The notes under the pieces: model-generated
Databases searched by the model: none
Told to the model about the DNA's origin: nothing
What the model saw: the letters and a program-made list of their open reading frames with translations, nothing else
Source: an uncultured archaeon
Lineage (GTDB): Archaea > Asgardarchaeota > Thorarchaeia > Thorarchaeales > Thorarchaeaceae
Assembly (NCBI GenBank): GCA_964648855.1
Contig: CAZYLT010000021.1
Coordinates: forward strand, 1-32,000
Direction: 5' to 3'
Length of the DNA stretch: 32,000 nucleotides
Shown: piece after piece, positions 11,877 through 12,284 of the stretch
How the letters are laid out: each line of letters begins with the position of its first letter
How positions within the stretch are numbered: the stretch's first letter is position 1
Translations under genes and position numbers: made by a program

Positions 11877-11897
11877 TTTTATGATAGAAGCCTTCCA
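11862..11897 (+). pseudogene. 5' half of a tRNA-Gly(TCC), positions 1-37
   Basis: GCGGCCG TA GTCT AGTTTT ATGAT A GAAGC CTTCCA aligns with the intact tRNA 5' half; homology stops after A37. Confidence 0.85.
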
Positions 11898-12196
11898 CTG
11901 AATTGTCCGTCATAGCGGGGTCTGGGCCCTGACTCAAGCATGACAGAACCCTTCCACTGATACGTCCCTTCTTTCACCTGAAGTTGTCGCAAAGAAGATG
12001 CCACCCTTCCACTAATATGTCGCATTGGAATATCGATTGAGGACTGTTCAATCTATGATCCAGGCCTTCCACCGATATACCCAGAGAGTTCACTCTAGCA
12101 ATATCCTTAAAACAAGTGTTCAGACACCCTTGACTCCAGAGGGACAATCGGGATTTGGGTCGAATCGATATGATCCAACCCTTCCACTGATCGTCC
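11881..12196. repeat. Interspaced repeat array with ~55-60 nt period, consensus ATGAT-N6-CTTCCA-CTGATAYGTCC, hairpin spacers
   Basis: CTTCC cores at 11892, 11951, 12006, 12066, (degenerate ~12129), 12181 and, in register, the tRNA anticodon loop at 12241. Confidence 0.85.
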
Positions 12197-12209
12197 TTTC
12201 TAGACTCCC

Positions 12210-12284
12210 GCGGCCGTTGTCTAGGGGCTAGGATTCCACCCTTCCGAGGTGGTAGCCCGGGTTCGATTCCCGGCGGCCGCACCA
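12210..12284 (+). tRNA. tRNA-Gly(TCC), CCA encoded, no intron
   Basis: Acceptor GCGGCCG/CGGCCGC; anticodon stem CCACC/GGTGG, loop CTTCCGA; T arm CCGGG-TTCGATT-CCCGG; ACCA end. Confidence 0.96.

Follow-up and report, generated by a model that had tools for sequence, protein, structure and literature searches.

A putative TnpB guide cassette matching tRNA-Gly(TCC) in a Thorarchaeal aCas1-TnpB mobile element

Loci that combine tnpB with a divergent Cas1 homologue have been described in Asgard archaea as aCas1-TnpB loci (Cas1H-Asgard-1 and Cas1H-Asgard-2; Altae-Tran et al. 2023, PMC10691335). The element studied here belongs to these published elements: it has the same gene pair, a TnpB with an omega-RNA-like 3′ region beside a divergent Cas1 homologue, and the same motif downstream of tnpB. 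The main text of that paper contains no occurrence of the term tRNA and no guide array at aCas1-TnpB loci. It places the guide in a hypervariable stretch upstream of the motif, whereas here the scaffold is longer and the guide follows a terminal repeat. The TnpB-aCas1 pair is therefore not new, but the array and the tRNA target apparently are; no description of either was found in the literature covered, which included the main text of PMC10691335.

Several other systems are close. In IS200/IS605 elements, TnpB and its omega-RNA act in restorative or intronless homing (PMC8612924; PMC13565253). Our locus differs in having several dedicated guides with a tRNA gene between them and the scaffold, in the lack of TnpA, and in that the guide is not the flank of the element; by analogy, the element would work like intronless homing. 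TranC and Cas12f/Cas12n, as outlined in bioRxiv 10.64898/2026.03.27.714800 and PMC10097598, share with it a divided omega-RNA, with a tracr-like part on the one hand and, downstream of the nuclease gene, units of repeat and guide on the other. Their repeats are 32-38 bp, whereas ours are about 10 nt and degenerate, our guides all appear aimed at one host gene, each with its own complementary arm, and the array has no Cas2 and no phage-directed spacers. An anti-repeat, as in type V CRISPR-Cas and TranC, seems to be present here (short, 5-6 bp, with compensatory changes), but an array of near-identical 25-40-bp repeats with unrelated spacers is not. Judged by these likenesses, the array would act like an intermediate between TnpB and Cas12, with a tracr and an array. 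Omega-RNA arrays also provide multiple guides for one TnpB-type protein, but they duplicate scaffold repeats of over 60 bp (PMC10691335), whereas here the terminal ~10 nt alone is repeated. Finally, CAST V-K and I-F elements carry delocalized crRNAs that home to tRNA genes, likewise a partial repeat with a short tRNA-matching guide on a mobile element; they use a non-cutting effector and a Tn7 transposase and insert beside the tRNA (PMC11656645, PMC8730458). The element described here instead splits and replaces the tRNA gene with loss of bases and covers a panel of alleles, and no Tn7 genes (TnsB, TnsC or TniQ) were found at the loci.

The window is the whole stretch of DNA analysed, 32,000 nt of a Thorarchaeal contig (CAZYLT010000021.1), and its array is best explained as the guide cassette of the adjacent TnpB, in an aCas1-TnpB mobile element that homes to tRNA-Gly(TCC). 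Elements of this type have a recurring order: a tRNA 5′ fragment, cargo, the array, a full tRNA-Gly, omega-RNA and tnpB on the minus strand, a giant gene on the plus strand, cargo, and a tRNA 3′ fragment. On the minus strand, tnpB, a shortened omega-RNA scaffold, the antisense tRNA and the array lie in series. In the window, the left junction, at 11862-11876 (+), is formed by a displaced 5′ fragment of tRNA-Gly that covers positions 1 to about 15-16 and retains its promoter. The element-borne tRNA-Gly(TCC) at 12210-12284 (+) is the sole full copy in the genome. It is followed by tnpB (12420-14114, −; 564 aa), the aCas1 gene (14352-18968, +; 1538 aa) and a cargo of an Mre11/SbcD-like phosphoesterase with a Rad50/SMC-like ATPase (19089-22141, +). 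At the right edge (22141-22187, +), an older tRNA-Gly allele has left its displaced 3′ half, which starts at about position 29. This Mre11/Rad50-like pair occurs as cargo beside aCas1 in two related elements, that of the window and L247; it could be a defence system or help in break repair.

The array consists of five units, each with a CTTCCA core, at core spacings of 59, 55, 60 and 115, and then 60 to the tRNA. An earlier note on this DNA had reported these units and spacings and their register with a real tRNA, and all were reproduced. A weight matrix gave the units 35-39 bits, against 15 bits for the next best site in the 3.1-Mb genome; since the matrix was built from the five units, their own scores are inflated. 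The motif also withstood the shuffle check that the note had proposed, with 6 occurrences within 11601-12400 against a mean of 0.008 and a maximum of 1 in 2000 dinucleotide shuffles. Within the 3.1-Mb genome it is restricted to the tRNA-Gly(TCC) locus, with no such copies at any other tRNA.

Read on the minus strand, each unit comprises a repeat of about 10 nt, 17 nt antisense to positions 37-21 of tRNA-Gly(TCC), and a fold-back arm. Unit 1 (11881-11908) has its repeat at 11908-11898 and its 17-nt guide at 11897-11881, and a tRNA 5′ fragment takes the place of the arm. In unit 2 (11911-11967) the repeat spans 11967-11957 and the guide 11956-11940, and the fold-back arm reaches to about 11911; the displaced tRNA 3′ half at 22141 has its partner in the stem strand of this unit. 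Unit 3 (11967-12022; repeat 12022-12012, guide 12011-11995, then the arm) is the most similar to the element's own tRNA, with which it has the stem in common and 3 mismatches, one at the first guide position. Unit 4 (12025-12082) has its repeat at 12082-12072 and its guide at 12071-12055, and unit 5 (12140-12197) at 12196-12187 and 12186-12170, each followed by an arm.

The earlier note had taken the tRNA anticodon-arm sequence as the repeat and the intervening stretches as unique spacers. The tRNA origin was confirmed, but the roles proved to be inverted: the tRNA-like part (positions 21-37) varies and matches the target, the repeat proper is formed by the ~10 nt on its right, identical on the minus strand to the omega-RNA terminal motif, and the intervals are imperfect complements of their own units. 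The label CRISPR-like probably holds for function; as a CRISPR array it fails, with degenerate ~10-nt repeats and guides that are variants of one 17-mer. A degenerate unit proposed at 12118-12135 is not a unit. The double-length gap (12083-12139) contains instead a probable tRNA promoter at 12099-12112 (+) with a TATA-like box at 12107-12112; the promoter role is suggested by sequence, and the same motif lies ~30 nt upstream of the tRNA 5′ fragments at 11862 and 6099. Most arrays have, on the plus strand after their promoter-proximal unit, a copy of the conserved 3′ motif of the omega-RNA, which lies at 12087-12095 in the window; this copy could let the minus-strand RNA pair with the scaffold, or it may belong to the promoter.

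The list of units in the note also lacked a sixth, variant unit at 11776-11800 (−), with a register one base shorter and a different repeat and right flank, which has copies at 6013-6037 and 1855-1879. Variant units with a shifted register were also seen in L165 and at about 439900 of G031 C2. The variant units lie ~30-40 nt upstream of the tRNA promoter. The block 11470-11882 is duplicated at 5711-6120 (+), with another tRNA 5′ fragment at 6099, and this copy appears to stem from an earlier round of insertion, in which the cargo at 6409-11239 arrived.

Identity to the tRNA was 0.67-1.0 across positions 21-37, 0.32 at position 20 and 0 at position 38, a sharp 17-nt window; for comparison, guides of ISDra2 are about 16 nt long (PMC8612924). 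Pairing of the arms was guide-specific (−10.4 kcal/mol, against −8.7 kcal/mol with swapped guides; none of 300 swaps was as low), and the 104 G.U against 52 A.C pairs in the arm pairing on the minus strand indicate a bias toward that strand. The complete 58-nt hairpin of unit 5 likewise folded at −29.5 kcal/mol on the minus strand and −20.4 kcal/mol on the plus strand. Orthologous units change by substitution.

This strand preference bears on whether the units might instead be plus-strand RNAs, of box C/D type, TIGR-like guides or split-tRNA 5′ halves. Such RNAs would agree with a D-box-like tetramer after the core, a period near the length of C/D RNAs and the tRNA 5′ start that precedes unit 1. 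However, Rfam matched only tRNA, the D-like box is variable, there is no conserved second pair of boxes, and no Nop-domain gene was identified at the loci. Split tRNA and C/D RNA were rejected on the Rfam result, the absence of tRNA positions 1-20 from the units and the minus-strand folding, and we regard plus-strand RNAs as extremely improbable.

Some further features of the units and their surroundings were recorded. Downstream of 10983 in L250 the period is ~120 nt and the arms are longer, with an unchanged repeat-guide core. At 433100-433170 of G031 C2 and in several other units, two short bulges surround a helix of 3-4 bp; these hairpins loosely resemble a bulge-helix-bulge motif, whose geometry would fit the plus strand. 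An open reading frame at 11974-12423 (−) runs from the tnpB stop through the scaffold end and the antisense tRNA into the array. Similar frames of 102-202 aa occur at 9 loci, 8 of which share the frame over the tRNA, although they were chosen by length; they are probably a by-product of RNA conservation, and coupled translation is possible.

The earlier note had not connected the array with tnpB and the Cas1-like gene on the far side of the tRNA. The omega-RNA of single-guide relatives runs beyond the published motif and closes with a GGTCAG-type hexamer, and the array repeat on the minus strand is the same as this terminal motif. The tracr-like scaffold of the window (12317-12545, −) has an anti-repeat near its 5′ end, at 12532-12522, and the conserved 3′ motif at 12324-12317. 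Neither the long terminal helix nor the terminal repeat that single-guide relatives have can be recognised in it, and in tRNA-Gly elements generally the scaffold is cut short, with no recognisable terminal helix. The bases after the terminal motif matched tRNA genes in 7 of 44 single-guide cases and in 0 of 132 shuffles, which points to this position as the guide slot and to tRNA genes as common targets. Of 20 distinct arrayed loci, 17 had a scaffold or remnant immediately behind the tRNA, compared with about 2 of 32 non-arrayed ones (raw rows, 23/26 and 6/36; duplicates and incomplete contigs were removed by hand).

Pairing between anti-repeat and terminal motif was stronger within single-guide elements than between them (−6.2 kcal/mol for own and −5.3 kcal/mol for swapped partners, p = 0.002; this and all other p-values given here overstate significance, because related loci were treated as independent), and compensatory changes occurred in several separate lineages. 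In the lineage of the window, two anti-repeat bases are substituted and the array repeats carry the matching changes; at one paired position, A is present in 15 of 19 repeats of this lineage and G in 17 of 20 elsewhere. As it is confined to one lineage, this two-base compensation counts as one event. The helix between repeat and anti-repeat has only 5-6 bp, and in this genome its −3.3 kcal/mol was not better than that with one foreign anti-repeat. RNAalifold selected a helix that crosses it, so that the anti-repeat pairing would be a pseudoknot, which RNAalifold cannot display; a pseudoknot beside the guide is known in TnpB RNAs (PMC10097598).

The protein itself does not seem to be specialised, since the TnpBs at tRNA-Gly fall into at least two clades with single-guide elements nested within them. 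G081-G083 keep units without a scaffold, and no TnpB match was found in G081 and G082, whose genomes are 88-90% complete.

Other copies and relatives of the element were also observed. Matches of the guide slot to tRNA-Thr, -Arg or -Ala, or to a Gln-like 5′ end, were seen in the single-guide relatives L195, L201, L180, L189, L177, L183, L187, L196 and L167, several of which adjoin an oppositely oriented tRNA. A second aCas1-TnpB element (L151; G000 C28, 8125-10172) has a single guide like a tRNA T-arm and adjoins an intron-containing tRNA-His that differs from this guide. The genome has four full tnpB copies, and numerous remnants of omega-RNA only, with a common sharp 3′ end, lie on G000 contigs C1, C6, C8, C20, C31, C34, C45 and C56; by their sequence, these appear to resemble non-autonomous miniature elements. 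A selenocysteine tRNA was called at 55144-55234 of G000 C6, in a genome with many tRNAs that have introns at non-canonical positions.

A search for related arrays elsewhere, as the earlier note had suggested, found them in many Thorarchaeota. A two-unit pattern was present in 12 of 400 Asgard genomes, all of the same family, with 0 control matches, and looser searches and metagenomes brought the set to about 20 distinct arrayed tRNA loci. Matching records were named Thorarchaeota, and 8 pattern matches occurred among viral contigs. Behind 44 TnpBs located away from tRNA-Gly there was no periodic array of the tRNA type; one of these, in L204, is followed by a 102-bp repeat. The element-bearing tRNA-Gly locus of L134 (G036) is inverted relative to the usual host flanking genes. 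In L165 (G006), two tandem tnpB genes lie behind a tRNA-Gly without standard units, and this tRNA allele matches units in G031 and L247.

Across the arrays there were 61 distinct guides, of which 11 matched a real tRNA-Gly allele exactly (2 in column shuffles) and 35 within one mismatch (15 in shuffles). At 19 loci, no guide matched the tRNA of its own element exactly, and one did so within one mismatch. This self-avoidance was significant against the alleles of empty sites (p = 0.005-0.05), not against those of other elements (p = 0.14-0.30). At position 37 (12246) the tRNA of the window's element has G, whereas the 37 other allele variants gathered in the family all have A. TnpB requires about 12 TAM-proximal pairs (PMC10097598); as position 37 lies at the first guide position, G37 looks like a candidate escape change. 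The displaced 3′ halves were closer to the stems of their own array than the own tRNA was (Wilcoxon p = 0.01), and 12 of 13 lay within one mismatch of such a stem (permuted, 7.8; p = 0.006); the 6 exact matches were not significant alone (p = 0.12). Counted by eye, 82 matches of tRNA-Gly(TCC) comprised 16 stems, 60 of tRNA-Glu about 10 and 20 of tRNA-Gly(GCC) 5, a comparison that is suggestive only.

The junctions fall within the D-arm of the tRNA and at positions 29-35, and target bases are deleted, not duplicated. The 22 tRNA 5′ fragments stop 11-23 nt away from the 37/38 boundary, where the guide starts, and most of these distances are 21-23; the search needs 15 nt, is blind to shorter fragments and floors the distance distribution near 22-25. 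The 3′ fragments begin raggedly at positions 29-35, with one at 44. ISDra2 cuts 15-21 bp from the TAM (PMC8612924), and by comparison the junction positions would fit a TnpB nuclease break with trimming, but neither crossover at a specific site nor duplication of the casposon type. An old omega-RNA or tnpB comes after an old tRNA 3′ half in G031 and L242, which indicates that elements entered each other's tRNA, and L226 has four stacked modules of cargo, unit and fragment.

The ragged junctions rule out a precise integrase crossover at the anticodon loop. They also weigh on a broader reading, in which the units are DNA recombination sites, either integron attC-like hairpins or hybrid anticodon-loop attachment sites, through which cassettes come and go. 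Integrases classically cross over at the anticodon loop, and integron attC arrays are likewise made of imperfect, strand-biased hairpins of about 59 bp near variable cargo. The units are imperfect hairpins of 55-60 bp with an invariant 7-bp core and one favoured strand, and in some genomes they flank cargo. However, most units adjoin one another with no cargo between them, the junctions fall outside the units, and recombination sites would leave the omega-RNA linkage and the covariation with the anti-repeat unexplained. No IntI-type or other tyrosine or serine recombinase was identified at the loci, where part of the ORFs was annotated and the recurring element genes were TnpB and aCas1 only. 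We consider recombination sites quite unlikely.

The giant protein had no sequence match in Pfam, NCBIfam, PDB or the ESM Atlas, and the fold search alone gave Cas1. It has an N-terminal Cas1 helical domain followed by a PD-(D/E)XK-like motif; for the model of residues 1-400 (pLDDT 82), the best 12 structural matches were all Cas1 or casposase (Z 12.9, rmsd 3.2 over 162 residues). No Cas2 was recognised beside this Cas1-like domain, there was no TnpA (Y1 or serine) among the window ORFs tested or the recurring element genes, and the window genes tested did not include PolB.

An integrase of the Cas1 type duplicates its target, and the units could accordingly be scars of aCas1 integration, as target-site duplications or captured pieces of the tRNA genes of earlier hosts, with no present function. 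Such scars would explain why units match real alleles, including displaced ones, next to a protein with a Cas1 fold. Against them stand the deletion at the insertion sites and the tracking of the anti-repeat by the repeat. In addition, guide and arm changed together in orthologous units of G000, G031, L242 and L247, which implies selection. We find scars very unlikely. The element also departs from casposons in this deletion, in ends that are not conserved and in the lack of PolB noted above.

The TnpB was recognised by Pfam and NCBIfam (guided_TnpB, 88 bits, under the 100-bit cutoff), by PDB matches to TnpB and Cas12f, and by the conserved downstream motif. Its D246 and D441 are intact, Gly349 replaces the RuvC-II Glu, and an alternative glutamate, Glu407, is conserved. 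Gly349 had suggested a nuclease-dead TnpB, an idea that was dropped, as PMC10691335 predicts rearranged RuvC active sites with an alternative glutamate to be active; TnpB with Gly349 and Glu407 would be this known rearranged site, and is predicted active.

The same glycine could be taken to mean that the RNAs of the units have the tRNA molecule as their target or serve in regulation, either as antisense RNAs to foreign tRNA-Gly(UCC) or through binding by a non-cutting TnpB, and the guides are indeed antisense to the anticodon arm of the mature tRNA. But the alternative glutamate speaks for cutting, and DNA breaks are suggested by tRNA genes that are broken at the distance expected, so this mode of action is in our judgement highly improbable. 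We conclude that the units are probably TnpB guides used against tRNA genes, a reading that rests on sequence comparison. The array most likely encodes on its minus strand short guide RNAs that would direct the neighbouring TnpB at rival versions of tRNA-Gly. The element carries its own, non-matching tRNA copy, and the array most likely serves selfish insertion rather than defence.

A possible life cycle can be outlined for this guide cassette. Transcription would run from tnpB through the antisense tRNA into the array, and the transcript would be cut into units, each repeat pairing in trans with the scaffold anti-repeat in the manner of tracrRNA and crRNA. TnpB would then cut tRNA-Gly genes with a guide-matching anticodon stem, be they native alleles or genes carried by an earlier element. 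The array would escape cutting because it has C, not A38, at the base beside the guide, and the tRNA of the element because its stem is different. The arms would mask both repeat and guide unless removed; speculatively, they prevent pairing of the guide with the abundant mature tRNA, or mark processing sites. We are less sure of the repair route. The break may be repaired by insertion of the whole element, leaving 5′ and 3′ tRNA fragments at the edges, or only the part with cargo, array and tRNA may enter, by one-sided recombination through the 3′ part of the tRNA. With an insertion of either kind, the cell would retain a working tRNA and cargo modules would stack up. That aCas1 joins the ends is speculative.

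It has been proposed as a standing hypothesis that CRISPR arrays arose de novo through duplicated omega-RNA segments (PMC10691335; PMC10097598). The locus looks like a minimal array of this kind, with ten-base repeats, no identical copies, invisibility to repeat finders and a Cas1 homologue alongside, and because close TnpB relatives retain a single fused guide, the split is directly testable. A stronger version, in which this is an independent, living CRISPR-like origin, with the Cas1-like protein writing new guides from the tRNA alleles it has met in an adaptive contest that diversifies an essential host tRNA, is in our opinion unlikely. A natively multiplexed TnpB with hairpin-masked guides could also serve as a tool.

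For the published aCas1-TnpB elements, these results would provide a concrete target, a guide position and a life cycle. If the proposed mechanism is true, they would be a natural multi-guide drive on an essential gene with a recoded rescue copy, and this may explain the variability of the tRNA-Gly(TCC) stem in Thorarchaeota and the pile-up of cargo at that site.
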